DNA of 64,000 nt from Candidatus Latescibacterota bacterium. GTDB taxonomy: Bacteria > Latescibacterota > UBA2968 > UBA8231. Below, in pieces: positions 13,994 to 48,533 of the stretch. Under the pieces are notes generated by a model that had not been told where the DNA came from, did no database searches, and saw nothing but the letters and a program-made list of their open reading frames with translations. A program made the translations under genes and the position numbers. Every line of letters begins with the position of its first letter. Position 1 is the stretch's first letter. The DNA lies in NCBI GenBank assembly GCA_965242865.1, contig CBDETK010000013.1:2336001-2400000 (forward strand), written 5' to 3'.

Positions 13994-14938
13994 CTACTGC
14001 ATGTACGAAGCCTTGATGTGGCCCCAGCTGTCGTTCTCAACGGAGGTGGGCAACAGGTCCGGCTGCGCTGGCAGCAAGATGAAGTCGGTGATGCACTTGC
14101 CGTCGCCATTGCCGCACCGCTGCCCCCCCATGCGCCAAGCGGCAAAGCGGCGGTCGGTCTCGTTGTCCGTGCCCACGTCGTTGTCGATGATCGAGACCCC
14201 CAAGCCGATGATATCGCTTTCGCTGAAGGCGTGTTGGATGCTGTTTTCAGGCGATGCGTGGTCGAAATCGTCCCAGCCCACAGTCCACCACTCCGCTTGG
14301 AAGGTCGCCTCGGTGGCGTGGGCACCGTTGAGGTTGAAGGAGTCGCCGCAGCACGAATAAGGCTCGACGTCGTGCCAAGTGGCGCTTGAGGCCCACAGCC
14401 AGTTCCAGCCGATCGGCTCCATTGGCGGCCAGCGGTAGTGGCTCATCTGGTTGAGGCGGCCCCGGTTGCGCAACACTTCCTCTTCAGTGTCGAAGTCGTC
14501 GGCGCCAAACCACGAGACGTCGCCGCCGTGGTTGGCGTCGAGGTTGATCTCAAAGCTGTCGTCGCCGCCCGCTCCTCCCACGCCACCGGCATCGCGATCC
14601 CAGAGATCGTCGAAGCGGTCATAGACGAAGTAGAGGCGGTCTAGCTCGTCGTTCCAGCCCGCGGTCCAGCGGAAGTTCAGATCGGCGGTATTGACCTCGG
14701 CTCCGACCTCGCCGGCTACCACCACGTGCAGGAGCTCGCCGTTGAACTCGCTAAACGGCGTGAGCCACAAATTGTCGGGCACTACGTCCCACTCGGAAAT
14801 ATCGCCATCCATCACCGGCAGATGCGACGTGGGCCACTGCCAGACGCCCAAAATTAGCCCCTCGGGCACGTGTGCCCAAGCAGGCGAGCCGAGCCCCAAA
14901 AGCGCTACGGCCGCACTCAGCGTTACTAGTCTCCTCAT
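13994..14938 (-). CDS. Secreted CBM9/DOMON-like protein with C-terminal WGxIK motif
   Basis: GGAGA RBS; signal peptide MRRLVTLSAAVALL...AWA; P.MDGDISEW, WN..RLYF, DD.FEI.LDA; tail TSVENDSWGHIKA. Confidence 0.65.
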   Translation of the reverse strand: MRRLVTLSAAVALLGLGSPAWAHVPEGLILGVWQWPTSHLPVMDGDISEWDVVPDNLWLTPFSEFNGELLHVVVAGEVGAEVNTADLNFRWTAGWNDELDRLYFVYDRFDDLWDRDAGGVGGAGGDDSFEINLDANHGGDVSWFGADDFDTEEEVLRNRGRLNQMSHYRWPPMEPIGWNWLWASSATWHDVEPYSCCGDSFNLNGAHATEATFQAEWWTVGWDDFDHASPENSIQHAFSESDIIGLGVSIIDNDVGTDNETDRRFAAWRMGGQRCGNGDGKCITDFILLPAQPDLLPTSVENDSWGHIKASYMQ

Positions 14939-15059
14939 GGCTGTCTCTCCTATCCTAAAATGGGGGTTGCCGCAAAATGCTCGCGCCGCTGACTCGGAGC
15001 GCACTTTGCAGCGCATTGAGTGGTTAGTCATAACAAACGCCTCTTGGGTTGTCAAGGAA

Positions 15060-20973: not shown

Positions 20974-23613
20974 CTAATACGCCACCGTCACCGTGCGCAC
21001 CACCTCGGTCCGCTCCGCGCTCAATCCCCCGACGTCCACCGCCACCCGGAGCAACGCACAATAGACGCCCGGGGGAACGCGCCCCCCCTGATCGTCCGTG
21101 CCGTCCCAAGCGATCTCGTACTGGCCGGTGGTCGTCGTGCGCTGCTCGGCGAGTTGGCGCATCAGCCGGCCACTCAGGTCGTAGATGGCGACTTGTAGCG
21201 GGCCATCGTCGTCCAGACGCACGACCTTCAAGGCGAAAACCGCGCGGTCGTTGACCCCGTCGCCATTGGGCGTAAACGCCGGCGGGCGCACCTCCACGTC
21301 GAGCAGCAGCTCCTCGTGCGTGGGATCGCCCACCAGCGTCGTCGTATTGCCCGCCACCGCGTCGAGCGCGTTGCCCGGGTCCACCCGCTGCCAAGTGCCC
21401 TCGCCCCCGGCGCGGTGCTGCAAGGAGGCATGCAGCACCGCCCCGATGCCAAAGAGCGCGGTGCGAAAGTCGAGGCGCACGACCTCAATGCCCGCATTGG
21501 GCCGAATCGCGGCAAAAGACAGGCGCAAGCTGTCCGCGCCCGTGGGCACGACCTCGACGCCCTCGACCGCACGCTCGGCCCCGGCTCGGCCCGCGTACAG
21601 CCCGGCAAACCCGAGCGTCATATCGGCCGGCGCGACCAGCAGCAACTGATCGAAGCCCGGGTCGTGGCGGTTGAATTGCGGCCGCACATAGAGAGAAAAG
21701 GGGCGGTCCACGCCCAGCGAATCGACCCGGAACGGCGCGATCTCGCCGATGAGCCCCTCGGCCACCGGGCGGGTAAAATGCAGGCGAATCGAGCGCAGCG
21801 CGGCGCGGATGGCCGGGTCCTCAGACCGCAGCGTCGCCCGCACCTTGAGAAACTCGCGCGGGCTGGGCGAGGCAATCGCGCTGCCCGTTGGGTCCTCGTA
21901 GGGCTGGCTCCAGCCGCTCCAGTCGTCCCCTTCCACCTCCTCGGCGACGACCGGCCCCTTGAAGATGTCCAAGAGCGTCGGATTGTTGTATTCCCGCTCG
22001 GAAATCTCCGTGCCGTCCTTCTTGAAATAGTGCAGCACCTCGCTCAACTCATTGCCCGTACGCGTCTGGACCAGCACTCGGGTGCCCGGCGGAGCATCCG
22101 CGTCCCATGCTATCGACAGCAGGTTCCGCCGCCCGCCCAGCCGCACCAAGCCCGATTCGAGCCAGACCTCGGGCTGAAACCCCGCGCCGTAAAGCTGCAC
22201 TGAAGCGGGAAATCCCCGGTGCCCGCCGACGGGCACGATGATTTGCTCCCACACAATGCGAAAAAAGCGCGTCTTAATCAGCGCGAAATCGTGCCCCTCG
22301 TATTCCTTGCGCGTACTCGACTGCTGGCGGCTGGCCACGGTCGTCCACTTGAGGCTGCCGTCGGCATTGAGCGCGCCGTCCGAGGCGTCGAGCCGATAGG
22401 AGGGAAAGCTAAAGCGGTCGCGGATCGCCTGCCCGCCGTAGGCCATGCGAAAGGTGTCGATCCAGTACGTCGAACCGAGGTCAAAGCTCAGATGGCCTTC
22501 GGGGCCGGGAATGGTCTGGCGGTCAAAGGAGAAGATCAGATCGACGTACGTCTGCACGTTGCCGTCGATGGTCCGGCCCACCGGCAGCCCTTGCGAGGCA
22601 AAGACATCGCCGCCCCGAGCCAAGGCCGCGATCAGCGCGTCGTCGCCCTCGTGCCACACTTCGAGTTCGGCCAGCCGAGGCCGCTCCCAGCGATAGTACG
22701 CGATCCCGCCCTGCTGGCTGGCGGGCAACCGGGCGTAGTCGGCCGCGGCGATCTCGGTGCGGCGTCCGTCGCGCTGCTGCTTGTAATAGACGACCGCGCC
22801 CTGCTCGGCCACCGGCAACGCCTCGTACTCTGGTTGGCTGACCTCAAACCCGCGGTCGAAATCCGAGCCGCGCACCACCACCTGCACCAAGCGCACTCCA
22901 GTGCCAACAAATTCGTTCTGCGCCGCTGAAACAGCCGATGTCGGCGGGGCGTTGAGCGGCTGGTCCGACAGCTCCTGCTCTGCGGCGTCGGCGCGCTCGC
23001 CGAGGACAATTTCCAGCCGCCGCTCGGTCTTATTCGGCTTCAACGTGCGCCACACCACGTCGAACTCCGGCTCCTCCGACGCGATGAACTTCTCCGGCAC
23101 CTCGCCGTCGGAGATCAGCACATCGTACTGGAGGAAGGGATCGCCCAGCCCTTCTTCCACGAACTTGAGCACGATGCGCTTGGCGATTACCAGCCGCCCC
23201 AGATCGATGGTAAACCACCAGTGCAAGCCCAGCTCGGAAGCATCTGCGACCGGCTCGGGTTCCCAGTAGGTCGCCAAGTCCCCGTCGAGCACATTGAGCA
23301 CGTCGGGCGCGTTGGAACCCGCTTCAATGGCATCGGCGAGTTCAATGTCCTCGACAGCCTTGTCCCGCGCCAGATCTTCGGGCGGATGCAGGCGCAAGAA
23401 GTGGACGATGTCTTTGGTGGCGTCGATGTTGCGGCGCAGAGCAAACGGCGTCACCGCACCGCTGGGGTCGATCGTCAGCGTCCCCACCGGAAACTCCCAA
23501 GCCCGCCAGTGCGCGGCGCGGTCAATAACGAGCTGATCGGCAGTGAGCCGATACCCCCCTCCTTGGGCATAGCCCGCAGCAACCCACAGCAAAACAACAG
23601 CCATGTAGCGCAT
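20974..23613 (-). CDS. Secreted protein with discoidin-like regions and FTPNGDGVND/FlgD-Ig C-terminal domain (cargo paralog 3)
   Basis: Signal peptide; IDLG; RTG; WSGWSQPY; SPSPREF; FTPNGDGVND...YDLSGR...WDGTD..G..V.PGVY. Confidence 0.8.
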   Translation of the reverse strand: MRYMAVVLLWVAAGYAQGGGYRLTADQLVIDRAAHWRAWEFPVGTLTIDPSGAVTPFALRRNIDATKDIVHFLRLHPPEDLARDKAVEDIELADAIEAGSNAPDVLNVLDGDLATYWEPEPVADASELGLHWWFTIDLGRLVIAKRIVLKFVEEGLGDPFLQYDVLISDGEVPEKFIASEEPEFDVVWRTLKPNKTERRLEIVLGERADAAEQELSDQPLNAPPTSAVSAAQNEFVGTGVRLVQVVVRGSDFDRGFEVSQPEYEALPVAEQGAVVYYKQQRDGRRTEIAAADYARLPASQQGGIAYYRWERPRLAELEVWHEGDDALIAALARGGDVFASQGLPVGRTIDGNVQTYVDLIFSFDRQTIPGPEGHLSFDLGSTYWIDTFRMAYGGQAIRDRFSFPSYRLDASDGALNADGSLKWTTVASRQQSSTRKEYEGHDFALIKTRFFRIVWEQIIVPVGGHRGFPASVQLYGAGFQPEVWLESGLVRLGGRRNLLSIAWDADAPPGTRVLVQTRTGNELSEVLHYFKKDGTEISEREYNNPTLLDIFKGPVVAEEVEGDDWSGWSQPYEDPTGSAIASPSPREFLKVRATLRSEDPAIRAALRSIRLHFTRPVAEGLIGEIAPFRVDSLGVDRPFSLYVRPQFNRHDPGFDQLLLVAPADMTLGFAGLYAGRAGAERAVEGVEVVPTGADSLRLSFAAIRPNAGIEVVRLDFRTALFGIGAVLHASLQHRAGGEGTWQRVDPGNALDAVAGNTTTLVGDPTHEELLLDVEVRPPAFTPNGDGVNDRAVFALKVVRLDDDGPLQVAIYDLSGRLMRQLAEQRTTTTGQYEIAWDGTDDQGGRVPPGVYCALLRVAVDVGGLSAERTEVVRTVTVAY

Positions 23614-23694
23614 ACCCTCTCCTCTCAGCAGCAGCTATACCTATACCTGTTGGGGACGGCCCCCGTGCCGTCCCCTGTCCCCCCCATCCGTCTC

Positions 23695-25626
23695 CTAGTA
23701 CACCAACCCAACAACCCGCGACCGCGTCTTAATCCCACCATCCGTCTCCACCTCAAGGCGCAGAACATACACCCCAGGCGCGACCAACCCCCCGGTCTCA
23801 TCCCGCCCATCCCACCCGGCGACAAACTGCCCGCTCTGGGCCGGGCCGCGGAAAACCTCGCCGCGCCGCCCCCCCTGCAAATCGTAGAGCACCACCGCGA
23901 CTTCGGCGTCACCGCTCACATTCAACAAGTCGTATTCAATCCGCACGGCGTCGTTGATCTGGTCGCCGTTGGGCGTGAACGCGGCCGGCACCAGCCGGAG
24001 CGCGCCGATCACCTGCCCGGCGATCTGGGTCAACCCCACGCTCAAGGTATTGCCCTCGACCCGCTCGACCACCTCGCCCGGGGTCACCGCTTGACGCACT
24101 TCCCGCGGCCTAGTGCTGTCGTGGACGCGACCGGCAAACAAGGTCCCGAACTTGAAAACCTCGCAGCGAAAGACCACTTCTATTAGCTCGCCATCGCGGG
24201 TCGGATCGATTCGCGGCACGCCAATCTCAAAGCCGCGCTCATCGAGCCGCCGCACTTCAAAGGCCACCTTTTCGCCGCTGTAGCGCACCGCGTCAATGCC
24301 CTCGGCCCGGGCCGGCGTGTCAATCTCAATGGCGTCGAAACCCAAGTCGTCGGCTGTTAGGCGCGGCAGCAGCATGTACGTGAACTCGGTTGCCGCGCCC
24401 GTCGGCGCCAAGATGGGCGCGATCTCGGCCAATACCACGGCGGCCATCGGCGGCCTAGACGCGGCGAACTGCACGAAGTTCAGGCGCCCGCCGGCCTCTA
24501 CCGTGGACTCGAAGTGGGCCCTGAGTTGCACGAATTGCCGCGGTCGCGTCCCCTGCATGGGGGCACTGCCCTGCGCCAAGTCGTAGGCCGCGCTCCAGCC
24601 TTCCCAGTGTTCCGTGTCGGGCGTGATGCCGGCCTGCTGAGCCCGCTCCAGCCGGTTGTACGACCGCAGCGTCAAAGGCCGCCCCCGGGCATCGAGTCGC
24701 GTCCGCTCGTCGCCGCGGAATGTGCTGCGCCAATAGGTGTTGGGATCGCCATCGTTGCCGGCGCGCATACTGAGCTCGATTTGCGCACCCGGATCGACTT
24801 GGCTACCCCAGCTTAGTTCGCCCAGCGCGGCCGGCCCGCCCAAATCGAGGACATTGGACACGTAGCGCGCCGTCGGCGTGAAGCCCTTGCCGTAAATCTC
24901 AAACTCGGCGATTTCCCAGATCCCTTGGGTGTTTTCCGGGGCTTCAAAGAGCATGCGGCGGATCGGCACTGGTGGCAGGTCCAGTTCGACCACCGAGGTG
25001 GTGTTCTCCGTGGCCCGATGCGCGATGTCAAAGTCGAAGAAGGAGCCGCGCGTCCCGGCCGAGTACTCGCGCGTACCTTCCTTGAGCGGGTCGCCGTCGC
25101 TGATGCCGATGATAAAGCGCTGGAGAAAACGCTCTTCCTCAAAGCGCGCCCGTGGATAGAACTTGACGCGCTCCACCGTGAAGTTGCCCCCGAACTCGAA
25201 AATTAGGCTCTTGTTGCGGACGCCAATGCCCGAGGTGGTCCAGTGCCCGTCGCCCAAGAAAACGGTCTCGACATCTTCGTCCCAGAGCACGGCTTCGGTG
25301 TCGCCGCTTCGTTCCCAGCCCCGCCAGACCAGCGTCTGCACCCGGCCTCCGCGCTCTTTGAGGCGCGGCGTCAGGTTGATCGATGGGTCCAGTTGCTCCG
25401 GTTCGATAAAGTCCGCCTCAATCGTCAGGGATTCGACCGCGCCGTGCTGGGCGGCTTCCACCGCCCCCCAATCGAGCTGCACAAATTCCACGCCCTCGGC
25501 CAGTTCCGGCCGCGGCAGCGACGCCCCGCCGATCCGATAAATCGTCAGCGCATCCGCGCCGCTAGTCAGCCAAGCGAGGGCGAGGATACAGATCGTTATC
25601 CGTTGATTTTCAAATGATCGCTTCAT
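23695..25626 (-). CDS. Secreted protein with FTPNGD/FlgD-Ig C-terminal domain (cargo paralog 2)
   Basis: Signal peptide ending ADA; same motif series as the 20974 and 34150 proteins; FTPNGDQIND...WDGRDETG..V.PGVY; alternative start 25662. Confidence 0.8.
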   Translation of the reverse strand: MKRSFENQRITICILALAWLTSGADALTIYRIGGASLPRPELAEGVEFVQLDWGAVEAAQHGAVESLTIEADFIEPEQLDPSINLTPRLKERGGRVQTLVWRGWERSGDTEAVLWDEDVETVFLGDGHWTTSGIGVRNKSLIFEFGGNFTVERVKFYPRARFEEERFLQRFIIGISDGDPLKEGTREYSAGTRGSFFDFDIAHRATENTTSVVELDLPPVPIRRMLFEAPENTQGIWEIAEFEIYGKGFTPTARYVSNVLDLGGPAALGELSWGSQVDPGAQIELSMRAGNDGDPNTYWRSTFRGDERTRLDARGRPLTLRSYNRLERAQQAGITPDTEHWEGWSAAYDLAQGSAPMQGTRPRQFVQLRAHFESTVEAGGRLNFVQFAASRPPMAAVVLAEIAPILAPTGAATEFTYMLLPRLTADDLGFDAIEIDTPARAEGIDAVRYSGEKVAFEVRRLDERGFEIGVPRIDPTRDGELIEVVFRCEVFKFGTLFAGRVHDSTRPREVRQAVTPGEVVERVEGNTLSVGLTQIAGQVIGALRLVPAAFTPNGDQINDAVRIEYDLLNVSGDAEVAVVLYDLQGGRRGEVFRGPAQSGQFVAGWDGRDETGGLVAPGVYVLRLEVETDGGIKTRSRVVGLVY

Positions 25627-25666
25627 GCAGCGTATCGGTTGAGCCGACATACCATTCGCCATGTGC

Positions 25667-25912
25667 TCAATCGGCGGCGGGCGGCAAGTGCCGACTGGCG
25701 TTGAGGATCGTCAGACCGATCACTTGGCCTTGCTCGTAGCGGATGACCACGTCATCGTCGGTCAGTTCGCTGTCGTCGGCGTGGCTGGGCTTTTTGAAGT
25801 TCACGTACAACACGTCGGCTTCGGCGTCGTAGGAAGACCATAGACTCTGCTTGGGAGACTGCTTCACGACGGGAATCAGAGAAGCATATTGCTCAATCAT
25901 TATAGAGGCCAT
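25667..25912 (-). CDS. DUF2283 family protein (putative antitoxin)
   Basis: YDAEADVLYV.F...S....DDV.IRY..G.VIGLTILNAS. Confidence 0.85.
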   Translation of the reverse strand: MASIMIEQYASLIPVVKQSPKQSLWSSYDAEADVLYVNFKKPSHADDSELTDDDVVIRYEQGQVIGLTILNASRHLPPAAD

Positions 25913-25914
25913 AT

Positions 25915-26160
25915 TTACATCTCGTCCCCAAGGCGCGGAGGCTCATCCCCTGCCGTTGCCAGCAGACGGTCAAAAGCCTCCAAATCGGCACCGGCAGCCC
26001 GATCTTGAAAGTAGCGGGCGGTCCGCAAGGCCGCTAGCTTCTCCGCTACGGCCACGTTGATAAACTGGTTTAGCGTCGTGCCCTCGGCTGCCGCCACTTT
26101 TTCGGCTTCGGATTTGAGCGAGGCGAGCAGATGGAGGGAATACGGGTCCGTGGTAGCCAT
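25915..26160 (-). CDS. Ribbon-helix-helix (HicB-like) antitoxin
   Basis: SLK.EAEKVA..EGTTLNQFINVAVAEKL.AL....YF..RA. Confidence 0.8.
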   Translation of the reverse strand: MATTDPYSLHLLASLKSEAEKVAAAEGTTLNQFINVAVAEKLAALRTARYFQDRAAGADLEAFDRLLATAGDEPPRLGDEM

Positions 26161-26248
26161 GATCTTCATCCTTTCTTCAGCCGCCGCATGGCTTGTGCAG
26201 GCGTTAGAATCGGCATGTTAAATAGGGTGGAACCCGGCAAGACCTGCC

Positions 26249-29059
26249 TCACAGACTCGCAAATATCGACAAAAACGCCAATCCCGCCGCCCGCGTCTCG
26301 CGCTCCCGCCCGACCACCTCCAACGACCGCCGGTCAAAGCGCAACCCGATCTGAGTCGTCAATTCGTAGCCCAAGTACTCCCGCTGATTGCTCAACTGCG
26401 CCGCCCACACCGTGCCGCGAAAATCCCCGGTCAGCACATTGTCCGCGAGGGCCTGTTCGTCCCGCAGCAACTCGAAGAACAGCCGCTGCTCAAACCCCAA
26501 CTCAAGCTCTGAACCCCGCATCGCGGGAAAGCGGACCAACAGCGACCCAATCCCGTCCCAAGAGCGGCGACGACGCTCGGCCAACGAAAAGGGCGATTGG
26601 CTGAGAAACTCGCTTTTGACGCGGGGCACAAGCGCCACCGAACCCCACGCAAAGACGCCGTCGATCTTGTCGATCAATCCCACAAAACCAGACGTCTCGC
26701 GACCCGCGTCGCCCGGGCCGGCTCGCTGGTGCCACCAGTCCCACTTGAAGCGGTGCTTCGTCGTCCAATGCTGCGGATGGGCGTACTCCCACTCGGCGTA
26801 GAACGCATTGATCCACGTGTCCTCGGCGGCCAGCAAATCGGGCACGGCGATGTGCTGGCCGCTCGTCTGCCCGGCTGCGCCAAATTCGAGCGTCGGCACG
26901 ACCCATTGGGACAGGGGATCGGGAATGGTGTCGGCGGCCTTCTTCAGCATGTCAAAGACCCGCACCCGGCCGCGCCCGGGCCAATCCCGTTCAAAGGTAA
27001 CAAGGCCGTACGCGGTGTGGTTTTTGCGGTCGGCTTGGCGCATGGCCTCGCGCAGGTAGCCGACCGCAAGGCGGACCTCCGGGTTGACCTCCACGCTGAC
27101 GTACGCGTTGTAGCCCCAGTGATCCTTTTTGTAGGGATAGTCGGGCAAATCGTCGTTTTCAAACCGCTCGGCCCAGCCGTTGTTGTTGAGGTCCAGGCCA
27201 AAGAGGAACGCCGGCCGGTCCGAGTGGTGGCGCAGGAACGGCTCTTCGTAGTCGGGGAAGAAATTCCCGTTCTGATTAAAATCTGAGATGAAGTCGCCGT
27301 TTTCGTCGTACCCGGGAAAGACTGCGGGGTCGGGCACGCCGTCCGAGCGCACCTGAAAGCCGCCCAGCGCGGTCGATTGCGGCGGCACCAACCCGCCTTG
27401 GAAAAATCGCTTCTGGTCCGGGTGGCGGTCCTGATCGTCGTTGTCGTCGACAAAGTCGTAGAGCCGGTCCGTGGCTTCGGGCGCGTAGTCAACCAAGCCG
27501 CGACTGTCAACGGGCTTGAAGCTGGTGGCGTAGGCGTCGTCCATGCCAAAGCCTTCGAGGGAAAACCGCCAAGGGGCGGCGTGCCGCACGAGATTGAACA
27601 GCCAACCCACGGCGTGGGCGTCGCCTTGAAGGCCGGAAAACGAGCGGTGCGAGGTGCGCGTCGTCGAAGGGAACTGGCGGTACTGGGTGCTGACGTTGAA
27701 CTCGCCGTATAAGTCAAAGCCCCACCAGTCGCGCACCTCGGCCGTCATACCGGCGACCTGCAAGGCGGTCGGCAGGCCGTAGTCATACACGACTTCGCGC
27801 GGATTGAGCTGGTTCTTGACGTTGCCAGCCGCCCGCGCCACCACCAGAAACTCCGGGATGCCAAGGCGGCTGTTCTGCCGGTCCGAGGCCACCTCGATCC
27901 GGTAGTCGTTGGCCAGCACGAGGCGGAAGCGCACGTTTTTGACGCGGGTGATGGCGTCGTCGGCCTCGTCCAGCCCCAACCCCAACCGGCGCTGCAAGGC
28001 CAAGCGCAAGGTGCCTTCTTCGCTTTCGCCCTCTTCGGCGGCCAACGAGTATTGCAGCACGATGCGCTCCGGCCCGTCGGCCCGCAAGAACCCACCGCGT
28101 TCTTCCCCACCCTCTATCACCGGAGCAAAGCCCACGCTGCGGCCGGTGAACGTGGTGTCCTTAAAGACCATCCGCACCCCGCCTTCGACCGGCACTGCCC
28201 GCTGGAGGGCCGTGGTGATCTCCACCTCGGCACTGAACAACACCGGCCCGCCCTCGCCATCGGCGGGCGAATCGTCGGACAGCCGCACGATCAGCTTGTT
28301 GAGCCGCCGGCCGAGTTGCCCGGTCGTCAGCGCGCCCTTGAGGGGATTGCCGGCAAAGCTCTCGCGGTTGCCGGCGCCATTGTGGGCGTTGACCAGCGTC
28401 AGGCCCAAGGTCGCGTTGGCCCCCCAATCGGCCTCAACGCGCCCGGCGATCAAGCTGGTGAAATTGTCCTGCGCGGCGGTCGGAATGTCCGGGTCGATCT
28501 CCACGATGGGCAGGCTCGGGCGCGCAAACAAGCCGGTGACGCGAAAGTGCGGCGCGGCCAAGCTGGTCACCACGCCATTGAAGCCGACTTTGCGAAAGGT
28601 CATGGGCGTCAGGGTGGCGAAAATCTCGTCGCCGATCATCAGGGAGTAGTTGTAGTCGCCGCTGGCGTCCGACGAGATGATCAGCCGGTTGAACCACGTG
28701 GCGTACCGCCGCTGTTTAGTCAACTCGCTGCTGGCGACCGTGCGCGCCTGCGTCTGGCGCCAGTCGTACACCAGCCAGCCGTGCGCGACCAGCTTGCCGT
28801 AGGTGTCGTAGAAATGCGACCCCTCTTGATTGCGATCTATGTAGCGCCGGTACGGCTCGGTCGCGTAGTTGGTGTAACGCCACTGGCGGCGGCCGTACTC
28901 CTCGAACAACTCCTGTGGCATGTACCAGCGCATGACCGTGGGGTCCAAAGCACCCATCCGCACGCTCGGCCCTTGGGCATTCCGTTCCCATCGCCCGGTC
29001 TGCGCTCCGGCCGGCACGGCCAGTGCCAAGACCAACGCTATGTTAGCTGCCCAATGCAC
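26249..29059 (-). CDS. Large uncharacterised probable outer-membrane beta-barrel protein (paralog of 31379-34144)
   Basis: Signal peptide from GTG 29059 (track start 29101); WYMPQELF; Asp-rich loops; alternating C-terminal strand AFLSIFASL. Confidence 0.7.
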   Translation of the reverse strand: MHWAANIALVLALAVPAGAQTGRWERNAQGPSVRMGALDPTVMRWYMPQELFEEYGRRQWRYTNYATEPYRRYIDRNQEGSHFYDTYGKLVAHGWLVYDWRQTQARTVASSELTKQRRYATWFNRLIISSDASGDYNYSLMIGDEIFATLTPMTFRKVGFNGVVTSLAAPHFRVTGLFARPSLPIVEIDPDIPTAAQDNFTSLIAGRVEADWGANATLGLTLVNAHNGAGNRESFAGNPLKGALTTGQLGRRLNKLIVRLSDDSPADGEGGPVLFSAEVEITTALQRAVPVEGGVRMVFKDTTFTGRSVGFAPVIEGGEERGGFLRADGPERIVLQYSLAAEEGESEEGTLRLALQRRLGLGLDEADDAITRVKNVRFRLVLANDYRIEVASDRQNSRLGIPEFLVVARAAGNVKNQLNPREVVYDYGLPTALQVAGMTAEVRDWWGFDLYGEFNVSTQYRQFPSTTRTSHRSFSGLQGDAHAVGWLFNLVRHAAPWRFSLEGFGMDDAYATSFKPVDSRGLVDYAPEATDRLYDFVDDNDDQDRHPDQKRFFQGGLVPPQSTALGGFQVRSDGVPDPAVFPGYDENGDFISDFNQNGNFFPDYEEPFLRHHSDRPAFLFGLDLNNNGWAERFENDDLPDYPYKKDHWGYNAYVSVEVNPEVRLAVGYLREAMRQADRKNHTAYGLVTFERDWPGRGRVRVFDMLKKAADTIPDPLSQWVVPTLEFGAAGQTSGQHIAVPDLLAAEDTWINAFYAEWEYAHPQHWTTKHRFKWDWWHQRAGPGDAGRETSGFVGLIDKIDGVFAWGSVALVPRVKSEFLSQSPFSLAERRRRSWDGIGSLLVRFPAMRGSELELGFEQRLFFELLRDEQALADNVLTGDFRGTVWAAQLSNQREYLGYELTTQIGLRFDRRSLEVVGRERETRAAGLAFLSIFASL

Positions 29060-29113
29060 GGTACAGGAGTCCAACCCCTCCTTCGCGGCTCCGAATCGCA
29101 TAGGTGTGGAGAG

Positions 29114-29437
29114 CTAAACAGCAACAACTCGCTGTTGTCCTTCTCTATTTTTTGCGGGAATAATGTGGATCTCAATATCGAGATTCAGTCGGTTGAGAAA
29201 CATCATCAATCGCTCAACGCTGTAGTGGTTAAACTCGCCCTTCGTTAGTCGGGATATTTCAGGTTGCTTTACCCCTAAAATCTCCGCGGCCTCTGCTTGA
29301 GTTAGCTTCCGGTTTTCTACAATCTGAAACACCTTAAACCCAAGCGTTGCCCTGAGAAACAATTCCTCCGCATCTGGCAAGCCGAGGTCCTCAAACACAT
29401 TGCCCGAACCTTTTTCAAACGCAATGTTCTCGCTCAT
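29114..29437 (-). CDS. XRE-family HTH antitoxin (HTH_37/HigA-like)
   Basis: GSGNVFEDLG.PDAEE...LTQ.EAAE.LGV.QP.ISRL..G....SVERL. Confidence 0.92.
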   Translation of the reverse strand: MSENIAFEKGSGNVFEDLGLPDAEELFLRATLGFKVFQIVENRKLTQAEAAEILGVKQPEISRLTKGEFNHYSVERLMMFLNRLNLDIEIHIIPAKNREGQQRVVAV

Positions 29438-29673
29438 AATGCACGCACCTCCAGTTGTCGCGCCATTTTCAGACGTCTCTTGATAAGGTCTATCTCTTTC
29501 TTTGGAGTTTTTATTCCGCGCCTTGATTTTTTTTGAAAACAATGCAGCACATAAACCCTCTCTCCAATTTTCACCGCGTACACAGCACGGTAAGTGTCTG
29601 TTCTGTGATCTGCCCGTATTTCAAAAACTCCTGAGCCAATGTCCCTGAATGGTTTGGTCGCCGGCGACCTACA
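29434..29673 (-). pseudogene. 5'-truncated RelE/Gp49-like (HigB) toxin
   Basis: Manual translation: KPFRDIGSGVFEIRADHRTDTYRAVYAVKIGERVYVLHCFQKKSRRGIKTPKKEIDLIKRRLK; in-frame TGA upstream and no family N-terminus; a repeat element sits where it should be. Confidence 0.85.
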
Positions 29674-29683
29674 TCATTCAAGA

Positions 29684-29737
29684 CTGGATTCCCGCCCCGT
29701 GTCGGAGCACGGGGTGACGTTCTGTTGCGGGAATGAC
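29684..29737 (-). repeat. 54-bp palindromic repeat, family A (GTCATTCCCGC...GCGGGAATCCAG)
   Basis: Near-identical to 36486-36539 and 55329-55380; nested hairpin CCCCGTG...CACGGGG. Confidence 0.88.
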
Positions 29738-29799
29738 TTTTCATAGGCAGAAAAGACGGTGCCGATCAACATTCCATGCTTTCGAGTCATTTAGGACGG

Positions 29800-31422
29800 C
29801 TATAGCTTTTCCAAGCTGCCAATTTCCACCGGATACTTGGTTCGCAAACCGCGCACGAACCGCACGTACGCCCTTTTCGACTTGTCGATCCGCACGTAGG
29901 CCCGAGCGCGGCGCTGGGACTCGGCGTTATACGGGATCGGCTCGCGGGTGCGCTCCAGCACCTTAAAGACCGAATGGCCCCGCTCGGTCTTTAACGGCCC
30001 GCCGACCGCGACCTCCGCGACCTCCCGCACGGCCGCCGCCAGCACGGGAAACAGCCCTTGGTTGTAGGCGTTGAGCTGCATCTGACCGTCGTGGTGCAAG
30101 CTGCCGGCGCGCTGGGTGTGACGCTGGGCCAACGCGGCCGCATCGGCCCCAGCGCGCAACTCGTCCCCCAACCGCTGGGCCAGCGAATCCGACGCGACCA
30201 AAATCTCGACGATGGTGGTGGTTTCGGGGCGGGTAAACTTTTCGGGGTGCGCGTCGTAGAACGCGCGCGCCTCTTTGTCGCTGACGCGCACGTGCTGATC
30301 GACCTCCCGCCGGCGCAACGCGCTGAGCAGCAGCTCCTCGCGCTTAACCGCCACGGTCTCTTTGAACCGCGCCTCCTCGGCCCAGCCGGCCGCCTCAATC
30401 TCGGCCATCACGAACAAGTCGGGCAGCACCCGCTCGCGCAAAAACTCGGCCACGTGTGCGCTGTCGGCCGGCGGTGCGCTCCGGCCGGCGAGCCGCTCGT
30501 AGGCCGCCAAAAAGCCGCTGATGGTGAGTTCGCCGCCGCGGTACGCACACAGGACTTGGGCTTGGTCCGCCATGACCCCGCGCTCGGCGAGCTGCTGGAT
30601 CGCGGCCGGCCGCGGCGCGGGCGCGTAGGCTCGCCCAAGCGAATCGCGCAACGACTGCAACCGCTGTTGGTGCTTTTGCACGGTCAGCTCTTCGACGACG
30701 ATTGGCTCGGACGCGGTCAGGGGCGCGGGAATCTCGTCGAGGACCTTGTAAATCACGTAATAATCCTCGTGGCCGAACACTTCGCGCACCGGCGCGGAAA
30801 CGCCCCCGATCTCCAACCCCAGCACCTGCTCCACCGTCTCGGCCGACAGCTGGTCGCGCGTCTGGTAGATGCCGGTGTCGCCGCCCCGTGCGGCCGTCTC
30901 CGAGTGAACCGAGTGCGCCTCGGCCAGTTCGTGGAAATCGGCGCCGGCCGCGAGCCGGTCGGTGATCGCTTGGGCCTCCGCCCGGCTCTCGACCATGATG
31001 CCGCCCAAGCGCAGGGCGCGGTGCCGGCCGCTCTCTCGGTAGTGCCGCTCTATTTCTGCGGGGCTAATCGCGATCTGGGCGACGACCGCCCGCTCCATGT
31101 ACAGCGCCATCAGCCGAGCGCGCTTGAAGCGGGCCAATTCGCCTTGGAACCAACGGTCTTCGGCCATGTTGGCCGCGTCCGCTGCGCGCAAGAGCAGCTT
31201 TTTGTCGATCAGGCTTTCGAGCACTTGGCGCGGCCCCTCCTGTTTCATTCCAGCGGGAATCCGCGCGTCGAAATCCTCGAACTCGGCCGCGGTAATCGGC
31301 TCGCCATCCACCCGGGCCAGCACCCGCTCCTCCGGCGGTTGGGCGCACCCGAGGGCCAACAGCGCCAGCGCAACGGCCTCACTCCAAGCCGGCAAACACC
31401 GTGATAAACGTCGTCGTCTCAT
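29800..31422 (-). CDS. Lipoprotein peptidyl-prolyl isomerase with two parvulin domains (PrsA/SurA-like foldase)
   Basis: Lipobox LALGC; LARVDGEPIT; GADF.ELA..HS...GGD.G; second domain EILV...GAD...LA...GPLKTE.G.SVFKV. Confidence 0.85.
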   Translation of the reverse strand: MRRRRLSRCLPAWSEAVALALLALGCAQPPEERVLARVDGEPITAAEFEDFDARIPAGMKQEGPRQVLESLIDKKLLLRAADAANMAEDRWFQGELARFKRARLMALYMERAVVAQIAISPAEIERHYRESGRHRALRLGGIMVESRAEAQAITDRLAAGADFHELAEAHSVHSETAARGGDTGIYQTRDQLSAETVEQVLGLEIGGVSAPVREVFGHEDYYVIYKVLDEIPAPLTASEPIVVEELTVQKHQQRLQSLRDSLGRAYAPAPRPAAIQQLAERGVMADQAQVLCAYRGGELTISGFLAAYERLAGRSAPPADSAHVAEFLRERVLPDLFVMAEIEAAGWAEEARFKETVAVKREELLLSALRRREVDQHVRVSDKEARAFYDAHPEKFTRPETTTIVEILVASDSLAQRLGDELRAGADAAALAQRHTQRAGSLHHDGQMQLNAYNQGLFPVLAAAVREVAEVAVGGPLKTERGHSVFKVLERTREPIPYNAESQRRARAYVRIDKSKRAYVRFVRGLRTKYPVEIGSLEKL

Positions 31423-34144
31423 TTTGGCTCTTGTCGTCGGTTGTGAAGACGCCCGGCCGGGCGCTGTCCTCAATCACCCGCTCGCTCAGGATGCGGCCCA
31501 AGCGCAGGCCCGCTTGCGTGGTCAGCCGGTAGCCTTGGTAATCGGACGTGGTGGAAAGCTGGACCGCGATGTGGGTCTCGCGCGAGTCCCCGGTCTCCTG
31601 CAAAAGCCCGGCCGCCCGCAGCGCGTCCTCGTCCTGCACCCGGTCGCTGAACCACAACTGCTCCACGCCGGCTTCCAAGACGGTCCGCCGCATGACCGGC
31701 AAGCGGGCGAGCAACTGGGCGGTCACCGCCCATTCCTCGCGCCGCGCCTCGTCGGCAACCAAGGGGGTTTGCCGCAAAAACTCGCTCTTGCAGCGCGGCT
31801 GCAAGTCAAAGCGGCCCAAGCTGTACACGTAATCCACCTTGTTGATCAGCCCCAGAAAACTCGCGCGGCTGGCCAGCGGGCGACCGATGCTGTCGCGCGG
31901 CTGGGGGGCGTTTTGGCGGAAGTGTTCCCACTTGAGCTTGTTGACCACGTTCAGCCCTTCAATACCCTGATAATCGAACTGGGCGTACGCGGTGTTGACC
32001 CACGTGTCCTGCGCCGCCAAGAGGTCGCGCACCACCGGCTGGACCGACGCCCCGACAAACGGGGTTGGCTCGCGCCGGGCGTCGGGAATGGTGTCCTTGG
32101 CCCGCTTGAGCAGATCAAAGAGCCGCAAACGCCCCAAGCCGGCGTAGTCTCGCTCAAGGGTGAACATCGCGTAGTTGGTTTGATTGAACGCAGCGGTCGC
32201 CGGCGCTTGCTCGTCCGTGCGCCCAATGGTCAGCCGCACCTCGGGCGCGAGATGGATGCCGCCGAAGACGTTGTAGCCCCGTCGGTCTGGCTTGTACGGG
32301 TAATCGGGGAGATCGTCGTCTTCAAAGCGGTCGATATAGTGGTTGTTGTTCAAGTCAATGCCAAAGAGGAACTCTGGGCGATCGACGTGGTAGCGCAAAA
32401 ACGGCTCGTCGTAGTCTGGGACGATATTGGCCGCGGTGGCGTTGTCGTTTTGGTTGAAGTCCGAGATGAAGTCGTTGTTTTGGTCCCAGCCGGGAAAGAT
32501 GGCGCGGTCGTTGGTCGAGCCAAAGCGAATCCAGTCGGGGAAGCGGTCTTGGTCGTCGTTGTCATCGACGAACTCGTACCAGTGCCGCTGGGTATTGTCG
32601 TATTGCACGTCGCCCGTGGCGCTGACCAAGAAGGCCGTCGTCGAATAGGCCGCGTCCATGGCATAGGCTTCGCCGTACAAGAAGTAAGGGAACGCATTGC
32701 GCCAGACATTGAGGAACCAAGCGTCGGCCCCCTCCGCGGAGATCGCGTGTCTTTCGCCTTCGTTGAACAGCGCGGCATTGGGAAACTGGAAGTACCGCTG
32801 GTTGCGGTCCCACTCCCCGTAGAAGTCAAAGCCGAAAACCCCGGTGCCCTTTAGGGTGAAGCCGCCGACTAGGTTGGCCGTGGGCAGCCCGTAGGAAAAC
32901 TCAATTCGCTGCAAGTTCGTGATGTCCGCGACATTGCCCTCGGCCCGCCGCACCGCAATCAACGCGGGTTGCGCCGCGTCGATCCCCTCGGCGGTCAGGG
33001 GCGCGGGCGGGATGGCCCGCACGCCCGTCTGGCGGTCGGACCACATCTCGACCTTGAAGTCATTGGCCAGCACGTAGTTGAAATCCACCCCGACGATCGT
33101 CGTCGGGTCTGGGCCGATGTACGCCGGGTCGTTGAAGTCGTAGTTGACGATGATGCGCTCCGGGCCGTCCGCCGCTAAAAAGCCCGGCCGCCGGAACCCG
33201 CCGAAAAGGATCGGCCACTGCGACCCGGGTCGGACCACCTCCTGCAAGGTTGCCACCGTCTCGCGGCCAGTGTCGAAGTCGCGGCTGGTGATTCGCACAT
33301 CGTGGCTGAACAGGGCTGCTCCCCCTTCGTTGTCGTCGGGCGAATCGTCGCTCAAAATCACTGCAATCGCCGTCAGCGGGGCCGTGCTCTGCCCCGCAGT
33401 CAGGCTGCCCGCGACCCAGTCGCCGTTGAACATGTCGAGCAGCGTATTGCCGTTGCTGGCGTCGATCACTTGGGCGCCCAGCTCCACGAAATCCCCGAGC
33501 TGAAAGGTCGCCCGGCCGCCGAACAACGAGGTGATGTTGGTGTGGGTCACCGGCTCGGTAATCCCGCCCGAAAGCTGGGTGGAGCCGCGGATCGGCTCGC
33601 TGATGCGCGAGGCGAGAATCGTCGCTTGGTACTTGTCCGCGGCAAAATCTACTTGCACTCCGTTGAAGTCCGGCTTGGAAAAGGTCATCGGCGTCAGGGT
33701 CGTGCGAATCCGGTCGCCGACCGTAATCGCGTAGTGGTACTGCCCCTGCGAGTCGCCGCTGATGGTCACCGCGTTGAACCAGCGGTTGAAGCGCGTACTC
33801 TGAAAAATTCCACTGCCCAACGGCTGCGGCTGAAATTGCCGCCAGTCGTAGATCAGCCAACCGCGGGTGGTGAAATTGCCGTACACGTCGTAGAAGTAGT
33901 CGCCCTCGCGGGTGGTGTTGACGTAGCGCTCATACGGGGTGCGGGCGTAGTTGGAGTATTCCCACGGCCGCCAGCCGTAGTCGAAGAAGAGTTCCTGCGG
34001 CACGTACCACTTCTTGACGGCCGGATCGAGCGCACCAAAGAGCACGCCCGGGCCGGTCGGCTCAAACCGGACCGGACCGCCGCGCTGGCCCCAAGCCGGC
34101 AGGCCGGCGATCAGCACCAGCCCTATAGCGAACCATTTTCCCAT
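31379..34144 (-). CDS. Large uncharacterised probable outer-membrane beta-barrel protein (paralog of 26249-29059)
   Basis: Signal peptide MGKWFAIGLVLIAGLPAWG; WYVPQELF; FVDDNDDQDRFPD; C-terminal TFITVFAGLE. Confidence 0.7.
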   Translation of the reverse strand: MGKWFAIGLVLIAGLPAWGQRGGPVRFEPTGPGVLFGALDPAVKKWYVPQELFFDYGWRPWEYSNYARTPYERYVNTTREGDYFYDVYGNFTTRGWLIYDWRQFQPQPLGSGIFQSTRFNRWFNAVTISGDSQGQYHYAITVGDRIRTTLTPMTFSKPDFNGVQVDFAADKYQATILASRISEPIRGSTQLSGGITEPVTHTNITSLFGGRATFQLGDFVELGAQVIDASNGNTLLDMFNGDWVAGSLTAGQSTAPLTAIAVILSDDSPDDNEGGAALFSHDVRITSRDFDTGRETVATLQEVVRPGSQWPILFGGFRRPGFLAADGPERIIVNYDFNDPAYIGPDPTTIVGVDFNYVLANDFKVEMWSDRQTGVRAIPPAPLTAEGIDAAQPALIAVRRAEGNVADITNLQRIEFSYGLPTANLVGGFTLKGTGVFGFDFYGEWDRNQRYFQFPNAALFNEGERHAISAEGADAWFLNVWRNAFPYFLYGEAYAMDAAYSTTAFLVSATGDVQYDNTQRHWYEFVDDNDDQDRFPDWIRFGSTNDRAIFPGWDQNNDFISDFNQNDNATAANIVPDYDEPFLRYHVDRPEFLFGIDLNNNHYIDRFEDDDLPDYPYKPDRRGYNVFGGIHLAPEVRLTIGRTDEQAPATAAFNQTNYAMFTLERDYAGLGRLRLFDLLKRAKDTIPDARREPTPFVGASVQPVVRDLLAAQDTWVNTAYAQFDYQGIEGLNVVNKLKWEHFRQNAPQPRDSIGRPLASRASFLGLINKVDYVYSLGRFDLQPRCKSEFLRQTPLVADEARREEWAVTAQLLARLPVMRRTVLEAGVEQLWFSDRVQDEDALRAAGLLQETGDSRETHIAVQLSTTSDYQGYRLTTQAGLRLGRILSERVIEDSARPGVFTTDDKSQNETTTFITVFAGLE

Positions 34145-34149
34145 GGCGT

Positions 34150-36414
34150 TCAATACGCCACGCCCACGCTCGCGACCGCTTGGGCGCGGCCCGTCTTGGC
34201 CTCTAGCGCAACCCTGAACACGTAGTGGCCCGGCCGCACCAACTCGCCCGCGTCCGAGCGTCCATCCCAAGGCCGGGCAAAACGCCCACTCTCCTCCAGC
34301 GCGTCGTGCAGGGTTCGCACCGGCCGGCCGGCCAAGTCGAAAATCGCCACCCGCAGCCGCGTGGGGCGGCCCACATTGGTCAGATCGTATTGCAGCTCGG
34401 CCCGGTCGTGGACGCCGTCGCCATTGGGCGTAAAGACCGGCGGCTGGGCGCGCACATTGATCAGCAGCTCGCCCGAGATGGGCACTTGCACGGACAGGTT
34501 GCCCTCAAACGGCGTGCCGAGCGCCTGCGCGTCGAGGTCGCCCTCGCCCAAATCGGCCGCATTGCCCGGCACCACGCGCTGCCCCAACGAGCCGGCCGAT
34601 GCAGTGTTGAACACGTGGCCGCTAAACGTGGTGCCAAAGCGCAGGACCGCGCTGGCAAAATGCACGCGCAATTCCGTGCCGTCCGCGCCCACGGTCGGGA
34701 ACTCGAGGACCAAGGCATCGTCGGCCACCTCTGCGATCGCAAAGGCGCCGCGCACCACCGGCAACTCCTCGAGCCGTGCGCCGCTGAAATCGGCCGCCAA
34801 CACCTCGCCCTCGGGCGGCCGGAGCTGCACCGCGCCGACTCGTTCCACCCGGAGCGGCGTGGCGATCCGCAGGCGATTAAACCCCCGATCTCGCCCGGGG
34901 CGGAACTTGCTCCGCACCGCGTAGGTAAACTCCGTTTCCTCGCCCAAGGCCGCACGGCGGGGGCCGATCTCAGCGATCAATTCCTCGGCCAGCGGCGAGG
35001 GCAGCGCGTCAAAGGAAAGGCCCCCGACGCCCGTGGCCGCCTCAAAGTCGTCGCTGGCGAACTCGATCATAAACTGAAAGTAGCGCCGCGGACCGGGCGA
35101 GACGATCGGCCCACCCGCGCCCTCCGCGCCCAAAGCTGTCGGGAGGACGATGCTGCTGGGGGGATAGGGCGGCGACCACGCGCTCCAGTCGCTCACGTCG
35201 TTGCGAATGGTCGCCCGCACGCCGCGCGGGAGCTTTTTGTAATCGGCCTCGCTCAGCGTCACCTGCGCCCGCTCGGCCGGCGACAGCGCGTTAAAGACCT
35301 GCATGGCGTCGCGCAAATCCACTTCCTCGTTGTCGAGGACCGCCTCGACCAGTGCTTGCAGCCGCTCATCTTCAATGTCTTGGGCGAATTTCCACGGCAC
35401 CCCAACCTCGTTCCTGCTCAGGCCGCTGCTGATTCCAGCGCCGCTGCTGACCCCGGCTCCATCGGCCTGCAACCCCACATTGCCCCCGCCGACGCGGAAG
35501 ATCGACTCCCCGGGCCGCACCTTGTTGAATTCCACTGGCTCGGGGTCTGTGCCCGTGCGCGTCCGCACCGCAATCCGCGATAGCTGGGGATCGCCGACCT
35601 GCTCCTGCACCCAGCGCAGCTGGCCCAACAGCGCCAGATCGCCAAAGTCGAAGATGTTGGAGATATAGACGGCCTCGGGCACAAAGCCCGTGCCGAAGAC
35701 TTGGAACTCGGCGAGATCAAACCCCAGCGCCGTCAGGGACTTGAGCCGCACAAAGCGCACGTATTGCGGCCGGATGCGCCGATCGACGACCGCCGCTTCG
35801 TTCTGGCCTTCGAGCACCACGCTCGTGCGGATGGGCACTCCCTCGCGCTGGGTATCGGGCGTACCGTCGTTGATGAAAATTTCAAAGCTGCGCATGAAGT
35901 CGTTTTGGAAGGGGAAATTCGGGGCGGGGAATTCGGGCGCGGCATTGCGCGGAAAAAAGCGGAAGCGATTGACGCCAAAGCGCGCCCCCAAGTCGAGGTC
36001 GATGATCAGCCCCAACACTTGGGCGCTTTTGGCGCCGGCGCTCAAGCGCAGGTCGAGCCCGCTTTGGCCGTCGTCGTCGATGAGCTTGGCCAACTCGCCG
36101 CGGACGTTGAGATTGTTGGGCGACGTGATCGAGCCGCCGCGCGCTTCGGTGTTGGCGCCGAGGGCGATGTTGAGCGTGGTATCGGCGCGTTGGGGAAAAA
36201 TCCAGTTGGCAAAATTGGCGGGTTCAAAGTCGATGACGCCGCCGGGCGCGTTGGTGCTTTCAACGCTTTGAGCGCTGCGAATGACCTTGGCTTGGATCGC
36301 GCCGCCCCCACCGCGCCAGCCCAGCCCATCCGCCCCGACGACGATGGGGTCGGCCGCAGCGGGCAGGCTGCTAAAGACAGCGATGAGGCCGGTGCAAAGG
36401 AGGGGATAGCGCAT
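34150..36414 (-). CDS. Secreted protein with discoidin-like domain and FTPNGDG/FlgD-Ig C-terminal domain (cargo paralog 1)
   Basis: Signal peptide; DLG..F.VNR.RF.PR; RTRTG.DP; WSAWSPPY; SPGPRRYFQ; FTPNGDGVHD...WDGRSDAG. Confidence 0.8.
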   Translation of the reverse strand: MRYPLLCTGLIAVFSSLPAAADPIVVGADGLGWRGGGGAIQAKVIRSAQSVESTNAPGGVIDFEPANFANWIFPQRADTTLNIALGANTEARGGSITSPNNLNVRGELAKLIDDDGQSGLDLRLSAGAKSAQVLGLIIDLDLGARFGVNRFRFFPRNAAPEFPAPNFPFQNDFMRSFEIFINDGTPDTQREGVPIRTSVVLEGQNEAAVVDRRIRPQYVRFVRLKSLTALGFDLAEFQVFGTGFVPEAVYISNIFDFGDLALLGQLRWVQEQVGDPQLSRIAVRTRTGTDPEPVEFNKVRPGESIFRVGGGNVGLQADGAGVSSGAGISSGLSRNEVGVPWKFAQDIEDERLQALVEAVLDNEEVDLRDAMQVFNALSPAERAQVTLSEADYKKLPRGVRATIRNDVSDWSAWSPPYPPSSIVLPTALGAEGAGGPIVSPGPRRYFQFMIEFASDDFEAATGVGGLSFDALPSPLAEELIAEIGPRRAALGEETEFTYAVRSKFRPGRDRGFNRLRIATPLRVERVGAVQLRPPEGEVLAADFSGARLEELPVVRGAFAIAEVADDALVLEFPTVGADGTELRVHFASAVLRFGTTFSGHVFNTASAGSLGQRVVPGNAADLGEGDLDAQALGTPFEGNLSVQVPISGELLINVRAQPPVFTPNGDGVHDRAELQYDLTNVGRPTRLRVAIFDLAGRPVRTLHDALEESGRFARPWDGRSDAGELVRPGHYVFRVALEAKTGRAQAVASVGVAY

Positions 36415-37125: not shown

Positions 37126-37225
37126 GGGACTTTCCTTTCGTGTTAAGGTCGTTTTTTGACGTTACAGGAATAATGCTACAATGTCAATCAGTAGAAACAC
37201 AAGCAATATTGACACGCCGATTGAT

Positions 37226-42329: not shown

Positions 42330-42536
42330 ATGAACAAGATGAACAAAACGCTCAATCCGCCCGCGACGATTGAAGAGGGCAAATCCTATCGCATTTACTG
42401 GTCTGACGAAGACGAGTGCTTCATCGGCTATGCTCCAATGGCCGGCGGCAATTGTTGTCACGGAGATACGCCCGCGGAAGTCAAGCGGCAGTTGGAAGTC
42501 ATCATGGAGCTTTGTCGCGAGCTTGAGCCTCATTGA
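42330..42536 (+). CDS. HicB-like antitoxin (short, orphan)
   Basis: Y.I.WSDEDECFIG..P....C.HGDTP.E. Confidence 0.8.
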   Translation: MNKMNKTLNPPATIEEGKSYRIYWSDEDECFIGYAPMAGGNCCHGDTPAEVKRQLEVIMELCRELEPH

Positions 42537-48532: not shown

Positions 48533-48533
48533 T

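Follow-up and report, generated by a model that had tools for sequence, protein, structure and literature searches.

The 64,000-nucleotide stretch analyzed here (assembly GCA_965242865.1, contig CBDETK010000013.1, positions 2,336,001 to 2,400,000; hereafter the window) carries on its minus strand, between positions 20974 and 36414, six large co-oriented genes in the order cargo1, barrel1, peptidyl-prolyl isomerase (PPIase), barrel2, cargo2, and cargo3, as an initial annotation had described. We find that this locus is a satellite cassette of a larger envelope system in which predicted outer-membrane barrels are accompanied by secreted proteins with tails of the T9SS (type IX secretion system) and, at core loci outside the window, by an ExbB/ExbD proton motor. 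Its closest named relatives carry the label Candidatus Latescibacterota. The system is real, conserved, and, as far as we searched, undescribed, and we infer its mechanism: at a probability of about 0.5, it would be a proton-energized importer that is not a TonB-dependent transporter, the standard model for energized outer-membrane uptake, and that bears lectin caps delivered by the T9SS.

Cassettes of large barrels and secreted cargo

The locus does not stand alone. It is one of 26 barrel cassettes in this genome (G000), which has totals of 37 barrels, 99 cargos, 26 PPIases, 28 CBM9-like secreted proteins, and 13 small lipoproteins; by open reading frame (ORF) span, these families take up ∼6.8% of the genome bases. 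Every one of the 37 barrels has a cargo gene within 10 kb, directly upstream in 23 cases, and cassettes like that of the window usually hold one each of three cargo subtypes (read by eye, no statistics). The repeated adjacency of the barrel, cargo, and PPIase families that the initial annotation had anticipated is also seen in GTDB genomes: among the best 80 of 588 confirmed stretches, which are close kin and not independent, cargo genes are present in 80, PPIase genes in 64, and CBM9-like genes in 66. Two further families are enriched near the G000 cassettes, FG-GAP/ASPIC genes (20/44 against 6.6 expected) and PMT-TPR genes (11/15 against 2.3 expected).

Barrel1 (31379..34144, minus strand) encodes 921 residues from its likely ATG at 34144, within a longest ORF of 34270-31379, and barrel2 (26249..29101, minus strand) encodes 950; the two are 40% identical across 991 alignment columns. 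The AlphaFold2 model of barrel1 has a predicted local distance difference test score (pLDDT) of 80 and a predicted template modeling score (pTM) of 0.79, and its top-ranked fold matches are outer-membrane barrels, which bears out the first description of these proteins. From the secondary structure of the model we counted by eye ∼24 membrane strands; a β-sandwich inserted at residues ∼259-417 and a conserved acidic DxDxD-like loop at ∼525-615 both lie on the long-loop side, which is probably extracellular. The best match is Deinococcus SlpA (7zgx_A; Z 14.9, root mean square deviation [rmsd] 5.8, 363 aligned, 12% identity), with further matches to DcaP (Z 13.7, rmsd 5.4, 237 aligned) and SprA (Z 9.9, rmsd 11.7, 421 aligned), and all are matches to generic barrels. 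A common terminal-strand motif ends 35 of the 37 barrels, and each barrel contains 3 to 8 D.[DN].[DNG] motifs. From this modeling, the ∼920-residue proteins are predicted to be large outer-membrane β-barrels.

The barrels have no sequence relative in Pfam, NCBIfam (E 0.01), or the PDB, the last searched with barrel profiles; at the family level this blank covers four barrels scanned in Pfam and four in NCBIfam, plus 120 listed homologs whose Pfam column is empty. A phmmer search returned 709 representatives at E 0.001, the named homologs being annotated "hypothetical," and an Atlas search gave unnamed clusters only, with DUF6029 the nearest named entry at 0.89, a lead only. The suggestion that the two proteins take the place of PorP/SprF is not supported: neither matches PF11751, TIGR03519, or NF033709 (PorP/SprF, PorV) at E 0.01, their lengths of 921 and 950 residues compare with ∼300 for those families, and the genome has a PorP/SprF-family gene of its own, while PorP/PorV-like genes occur in all 28 long core loci described below. 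Nor are they recognizable as SprA-type translocons, since barrel1 and barrel2 are without a TIGR04189 or PF14349 (SprA) match and hhalign against the first 1,000 residues of 14 SprA sequences, with the SprA C-terminal half outside the comparison, returned probabilities of 2.1% and 0.6%. An apparent similarity to SprA motifs was dropped because this comparison gave it no support.

In a FastTree phylogeny of the 37 barrels, each of the 7 tandem pairs combines one "first-position" with one "second-position" barrel, and branching is mirrored in 5 of them; barrel1 falls in the first-position clade and barrel2 in the second. The tandem pair therefore appears to duplicate as a unit, and this in turn suggests that the two barrels may form a heterodimer. 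A complex prediction for barrel1 (residues 30-921) with the cargo1 tail (residues 650-754) scored 0.00, which gives no verdict and is evidence neither way. In genomes G099 and G107, the barrel genes at L155, L163, and L170 are split in two ORFs by frameshift or assembly error.

The cargo genes, also on the minus strand, encode 754 (cargo1, 34150..36414; ORF 36414-34150), 655 (cargo2, 23695..25662), and 879 residues (cargo3, 20974..23613), with 28-33% identity between pairs over the C-terminal halves. Cargo1, whose subtype usually lies directly upstream of a barrel, was modeled with a pLDDT of 93 and comprises a signal peptide, a CBM32/F5-8-like domain at residues 78-244 (4a42_B; Z 15.3, rmsd 2.1, 123 aligned), further β-sandwich domains, and a T9SS-type C-terminal domain at residues ∼647-754 that superposes on that of PorU (6za2_B; Z 12.2, rmsd 2.5, 99 aligned). 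Cargo2 represents the second subtype, with a tail as in cargo1, and cargo3 the third, with an F5/8 type C match above the cutoff (36.6 bits).

The initial description of these tails survives in part. DLG, EI.P, V.PG, and FTPNGD..[NH]D are each present in all three window cargos, whereas W..WS.PY occurs in two and RTG.DP and PR.F.Q in one each. The FTPNGD tail is likewise common to the three, but it is not followed by a separate FlgD-Ig unit, as CHU_C and FlgD_ig matches overlap on the last ∼100 residues and describe a single domain. As for membership of the type B class, the window tails score 20.6 and 21.5 bits with TIGR04131 against a cutoff of 35 (no match for cargo2) and 21-23 bits with CHU_C against 27, so that they are better called type-B-like, while paralogs at L125 and L145 pass CHU_C with 34.1 and 37.5 bits. 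Across the genome, PN.D is found in 92 of 99 cargo tails; other tail proteins lack F[TS]PNGD (0/77) and carry a type-A-like motif in 54 of 77 cases. By these motifs, the cargo tails make up a class distinct from type-A-like tails.

The genome search for SprA that the initial annotation had proposed recovered the gene, along with PorU and 13 PorV-family matches, and the cargo is probably secreted through SprA. The search for GldM was blank and its control equally silent, which is no proof that the canonical motor is missing, and PorK, PorL, and PorN were outside the search. A first search for PorP/SprF was blank with a silent control too, and the notion of a genome devoid of PorP was discarded when a direct scan found a member. 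Elsewhere in G000, a second layout of receptor plus shuttle occurs at L129 and L130, where plug-domain receptors come ahead of a large unknown protein plus a PorV-family gene. Tandem arrays of ∼700- to 780-residue proteins with type-A-like tails lie at C13:367162-410433, 488964-497537, and 3156151-3205137; one scanned member has FG-GAP repeats, and TonB-like DUF4159 genes occur among or beside these arrays.

The PPIase gene (29800..31473, minus strand; likely start 31422) encodes a lipobox and two Rotamase stretches, that is, a twin-parvulin (SurA/PrsA-like) lipoprotein. The family, present in most of the close GTDB loci as given above, is found in 2 of 3 G010 loci and in none of the 91 barrel loci taken from cargo-poor lineages, with a profile built from this genome and some of the 91 loci short. 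This distribution fits a chaperone for an expanded cargo set, and, in support of the dedicated chaperone originally proposed, the PPIase goes with cargo-rich cassettes. The CBM9-like gene, a regular cassette member, is represented in the window by a secreted protein of ∼300 residues (13994..15055, minus strand; paralogs match CBM9_1) that is displaced 5.9 kb downstream, the match at L037 lying ∼0.4 kb past cargo3.

A core operon with a proton motor

Core loci follow a recurring order of cargo, PorP-like gene, one to three barrels, TPR, ExbB, ExbD, ExbD, DUF4159 (TonB-like), and lipoprotein, found whole or in part in Latescibacterota families f7, f8, f10, and f13 and also in f1; the core loci of G099 and G107 keep this order without the PorP-like label. 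L022, the most divergent cassette in this genome, consists, in order, of a CBM9-like gene, a barrel, two probable lipoproteins, cargo, PorV/PorP-like, barrel, 1090-residue TPR, ExbB, ExbD, ExbD, lipoprotein, and PPIase, and L125 combines a PorP/SprF-family gene (PF11751, 36.2 bits against a cutoff of 22.3) with TPR, ExbB, ExbD, and DUF4159. Matches to PF01618 (MotA_ExbB) and PF02472 (ExbD) are above cutoff at core loci and do not occur in the window. The TPR protein matches the PorW/SprE model weakly (108.7 against a cutoff of 250). In core operons the PorP/SprF-like gene sits directly downstream of the cargo; in the window a barrel follows instead.

A distant homolog, whose cluster members are named Ignavibacteria/Bacteroidota, retrieved 54 metagenome loci. 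The 28 of these that span at least 15 kb all contain cargo, PorP-like, and TPR genes, and they contain DUF4159 in 27, ExbB in 26, ExbD in 26, and the lipoprotein in 25 cases; the GC content of the metagenome core loci ranges from 33 to 58%.

The DUF4159 proteins consist of one membrane helix, an extended Pro/Lys/Arg linker, and a globular head, and a transmembrane His motif together with the linker is seen in 11 of 14. They are built like TonB. Pfam assigns them to DUF4159 and gives no VWA or TonB_C match; the canonical TonB of the genome sits elsewhere (L127:10483-11136). TonB-like genes are present in 6 of 8 G008 barrel loci examined. Fusions of the core lipoprotein are seen at L191, L201, and L145, with a second DUF4159 domain in Ignavibacteria-like loci and with an AgmX/PglI domain in G011 (40.4 against a cutoff of 40), and DUF5683 is often found inside the core operon.

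Among 168 genomes of the phylum, 107 have the barrel, 106 the cargo, and 105 the TonB-like protein, in almost identical sets of genomes, and each is absent from all 56 genomes of families f2-f4 (the E-value thresholds were our choice, and related genomes are not independent). SprA is present in 167 of the 168, including the 56 without the system, which led us to reject the idea that the ExbBD operon is a general T9SS motor. Barrel:cargo ratios, counted by hand from match lists that leave out 23 weaker barrel matches, are 15:1 in G008, ∼50:2 in G099, ∼40:6 in G107, 4:∼12 in G010, and 37:99 in this genome. In G008, G099, and G107, then, barrels have multiplied with hardly any accompanying cargo, and dozens lack it. 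This argues against the dedicated translocon or adaptor that the initial annotation had seen in them, and the job of the barrel is probably not simply to export or hold cargo.

Proposed energized import and its alternatives

In the importer that we favor, cargo would cross the outer membrane through SprA, be collected by a PorP-like shuttle, and dock on the extracellular face of the barrel pair as a three-subunit, glycan-binding cap. ExbB and ExbD would then pull on the periplasmic side of the barrel, with the TPR scaffold and the His-anchored TonB-like arm as links, and this pull would gate the uptake of bound solutes. The lipoprotein PPIase would fold or hold the cargo of its cassette in the periplasm, and dozens of barrels could draw on a few motors in trans, in the way that many transporters draw on TonB. 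The linkage to motor genes, taken together with 37 barrels against 2 loci with ExbB, TPR, and a PorP-like gene in G000, points to an energized cycle. Put in full, as a second class of proton-energized outer-membrane importer with heterodimeric ∼24-strand barrels, a lectin-trio cap, and ExbB/ExbD gating via a DUF4159-tipped arm, extending from Ignavibacteria-like bacteria to Latescibacterota in dozens of substrate-specific cassettes, the proposal is more tentative.

Uptake of a substrate through the barrels is a predicted function, on which genomic context gives mixed results, and we hold it to be about an even chance. Cargo-less barrels adjoin catabolic enzymes and two-component and sigma-54 regulators. 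DUF6785 inner-membrane proteins, putative transporters, are encoded less than 6 kb from barrels at a higher rate than shifted controls give, both in G099 (9/33 against 2.4) and in G107 (9/25 against 2.0), with p 0.002. In G008 this clustering is seen at 12 kb only, and in G000 at 20 kb only. The PDB holds no sequence matching this family. Across the phylum, membrane proteins of the DUF6785/DUF6784 type have expanded, with 29 in G000 (for example, C13:1990001-1991941) and a presence in 154 of 168 genomes. The GH130/GH117-like, glycosidase-like proteins (weak similarity), ∼500 residues long and signal-less, number 122 matches in G099 and 74 in G107 (for example, at L162 and L166), and ∼2 in G000; they are enriched near barrels only in G107 at 12 kb (16/53 against 7.5).

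Several observations weigh against import. DUF6785 genes are not enriched within 6 or 12 kb of barrels in G000 or within 6 kb in G008, and they are missing from all 13 barrel-bearing f10 genomes yet present in the barrel-less f2-f4; with no co-distribution, a role for DUF6785 as a core subunit was rejected. Four families of catabolic genes show no enrichment near the G000 cassettes, PhyH (3/46 against 6.7 expected), GFO (5/60 against 8.9), enolase-like (5/38 against 5.6), and sulfatase (2/23 against 3.5), with intervals that include the cassettes themselves and are thus biased against enrichment, and a classical polysaccharide-utilization locus is unsupported in this genome. Near G099 barrels the GH130/GH117-like family is at expectation (6/85 against 6.5). 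No plug (PF07715) or TonB_dep_Rec domain was detected in the scanned barrels, the N-terminal 130 residues of barrel1 were modeled at low confidence, and the genome retains 22 ordinary plug-domain matches. Finally, 5 of 8 TonB-like genes in G000 lie in or at the end of type-A-tail protein arrays, a hint of a role with secreted proteins.

That last observation also suits a display or sorting function, near to what the initial annotation proposed, in which the barrels would be energized docking or secondary export stations for type-B-like cargo arriving from the PorP-like shuttle and would fix it to the cell surface, assemble it there, or let it go, serving adhesion or receptor variation. The constant company of cargo and PorP-like genes in the 28 long core loci, the position of cargo next to the G000 barrels, the separate class of cargo tails, and the weak PorW/SprE match of the TPR protein all speak for it. 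We nevertheless regard it as rather unlikely: dozens of barrels do without cargo in G008, G099, and G107, the barrels have no detectable homology to the N-terminal half of SprA, and since 56 genomes have SprA and lack the system, export does not need it.

Two other functions seem less probable still. ExbB, two ExbDs, TPR, the TonB-like arm, and tandem barrels could move a lectin adhesin along the cell surface, as in the Agl-Glt gliding and Nfs machines of Myxococcus, which also have a TolQ-like protein and two TolR-like proteins, TPR, a TonB-like arm, several barrels, and a surface adhesin; the parts list parallels AglRQS/GltG/GltE/GltABH, and the fixed pairs or triplets of barrels are in keeping with it. 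The only family match in common is the AgmX/PglI domain at the C terminus of one core lipoprotein, right at its cutoff, Pfam and NCBIfam give no Glt family match for barrels or cargo, the cargo is of T9SS type, and for 37 to ∼50 divergent copies dispersed next to permease-like genes and regulators, specificity for substrates is a better fit than a single motility track. Section 8 of PMC12204202 speculates on gliding for TPR-tolQ-tolR-tolR-vWA operons; all considered, we judge gliding improbable here. Calcium-stabilized passive pores or an SlpA-like lattice, which the motor would only assemble or maintain, are the least probable of all. The SlpA fold match, the D.[DN].[DNG] motifs, and the share of the genome given to the cassettes agree with such a role; the SlpA match is, however, generic at 12% identity, with DcaP close behind, and the strict tie to motor genes, along with the TonB-like genes that accompany G008 barrels, suggests a functional cycle.

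Compared with known systems, the one described here would in its workings most resemble a cross between Ton-energized SusCD uptake and the handling of T9SS type B cargo. With SusC/SusD and ExbB-ExbD-TonB (PMC12204202), it shares many outer-membrane barrels per few ExbBD motors and a His-anchored, periplasm-spanning arm, and with SusC/SusD also surface binding proteins encoded beside the barrel and massive paralog expansion. It differs in barrels of ∼24 strands with large inserted domains and no plug or TonB_dep_Rec match, in an arm that ends in DUF4159 and not TonB_C, in the extra TPR and PorP-like subunits, and in partners that carry T9SS tails and CBM32 domains in place of SusD lipoproteins. 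Substrates with the type B C-terminal domain use PorP/SprF shuttles, according to PMC12618676 and PMC9143113. The FTPNGD-type tail, the PorP-like gene directly downstream of cargo in core operons, and the SprA, PorU, and PorV-family genes conform to that arrangement, whereas here up to 99 cargos would be served by a single shuttle-like gene at each core locus, a ∼920-residue barrel follows the cargo, and ExbBD is in the operon. The vWA-headed force transducers beside TPR-tolQ-tolR-tolR in PMC12204202 also combine TPR, TolQ/ExbB, two ExbD-like genes, and a His-anchored transducer with a non-TonB head; in our case the head is DUF4159 and the operon adds an outer-membrane barrel, a shuttle, and cargo. 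Neither DUF4159 nor Latescibacter is mentioned in the main text of that paper, whose supplements could list such operons.

A literature search, with most subscription journals outside its reach, found no published description of a barrel-cargo-ExbBD-DUF4159 system. If import is correct, a barrel family unrelated in sequence to TonB-dependent transporters would represent a second solution to energized uptake, joining the ExbB/ExbD motor to the T9SS, which are usually studied apart. Its ∼7% share of this genome and its presence in 107 of the 168 genomes from a phylum that is widespread and uncultured make it a probable influence on what these bacteria eat or bind, and DUF4159 gains a testable role. 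Were display or gliding right instead, this would still be an undescribed envelope machine.

Gene arrangement, insertions, and neighbors in the window

The six genes are tightly packed at the cargo1 end, where the likely ATG of barrel1 lies 5 nucleotides past the cargo1 stop and the likely start of the PPIase gene overlaps the 3′ end of barrel1. The small toxin-antitoxin (TA) genes noted earlier as interrupting the locus are indeed TA-like, and they are mobile, because they are missing from the orthologous locus L030 and found at other positions in L031 and L032. One insert (29114..29790, minus strand, 47% GC) lies between PPIase and barrel2, does not belong to the machine, and has an HTH_37 antitoxin-like gene at 29542-29114 after a 5′-broken reading frame, which we take to resemble a HigB/Gp49-type toxin. 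The other (25667..26169, minus strand) holds an 84-residue Rv0623-like/antitoxin-like ORF, below the cutoff, and an 81-residue DUF2283 ORF.

Members of the two families enriched near cassettes are found upstream of cargo1, by Pfam an FG-GAP/ASPIC-UnbV protein (40757-42304, plus strand) and a PMT_2-TPR membrane protein (42530-44341, minus strand). In close relatives, too, a pentapeptide-repeat protein (37181-38743, plus strand) adjoins the cassette. The interval from cargo3 to the displaced CBM9-like gene holds a 1115-residue ORF (17575-20922, minus strand) with no Pfam or NCBIfam match, whose NPPF motif suggests a DNA methyltransferase. At 44492-50594 (minus strand), a leucine-rich repeat (internalin-like) ORF is upstream of a 1354-residue Ig-domain protein with a type A tail, and the two are possibly one split surface protein. 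The window further contains an M6-like peptidase with a β-helix and a T9SS-like tail (3652-6303, plus strand) and a Pnkp-Hen1 RNA repair pair above the NCBIfam cutoffs (51166-55231, minus strand).

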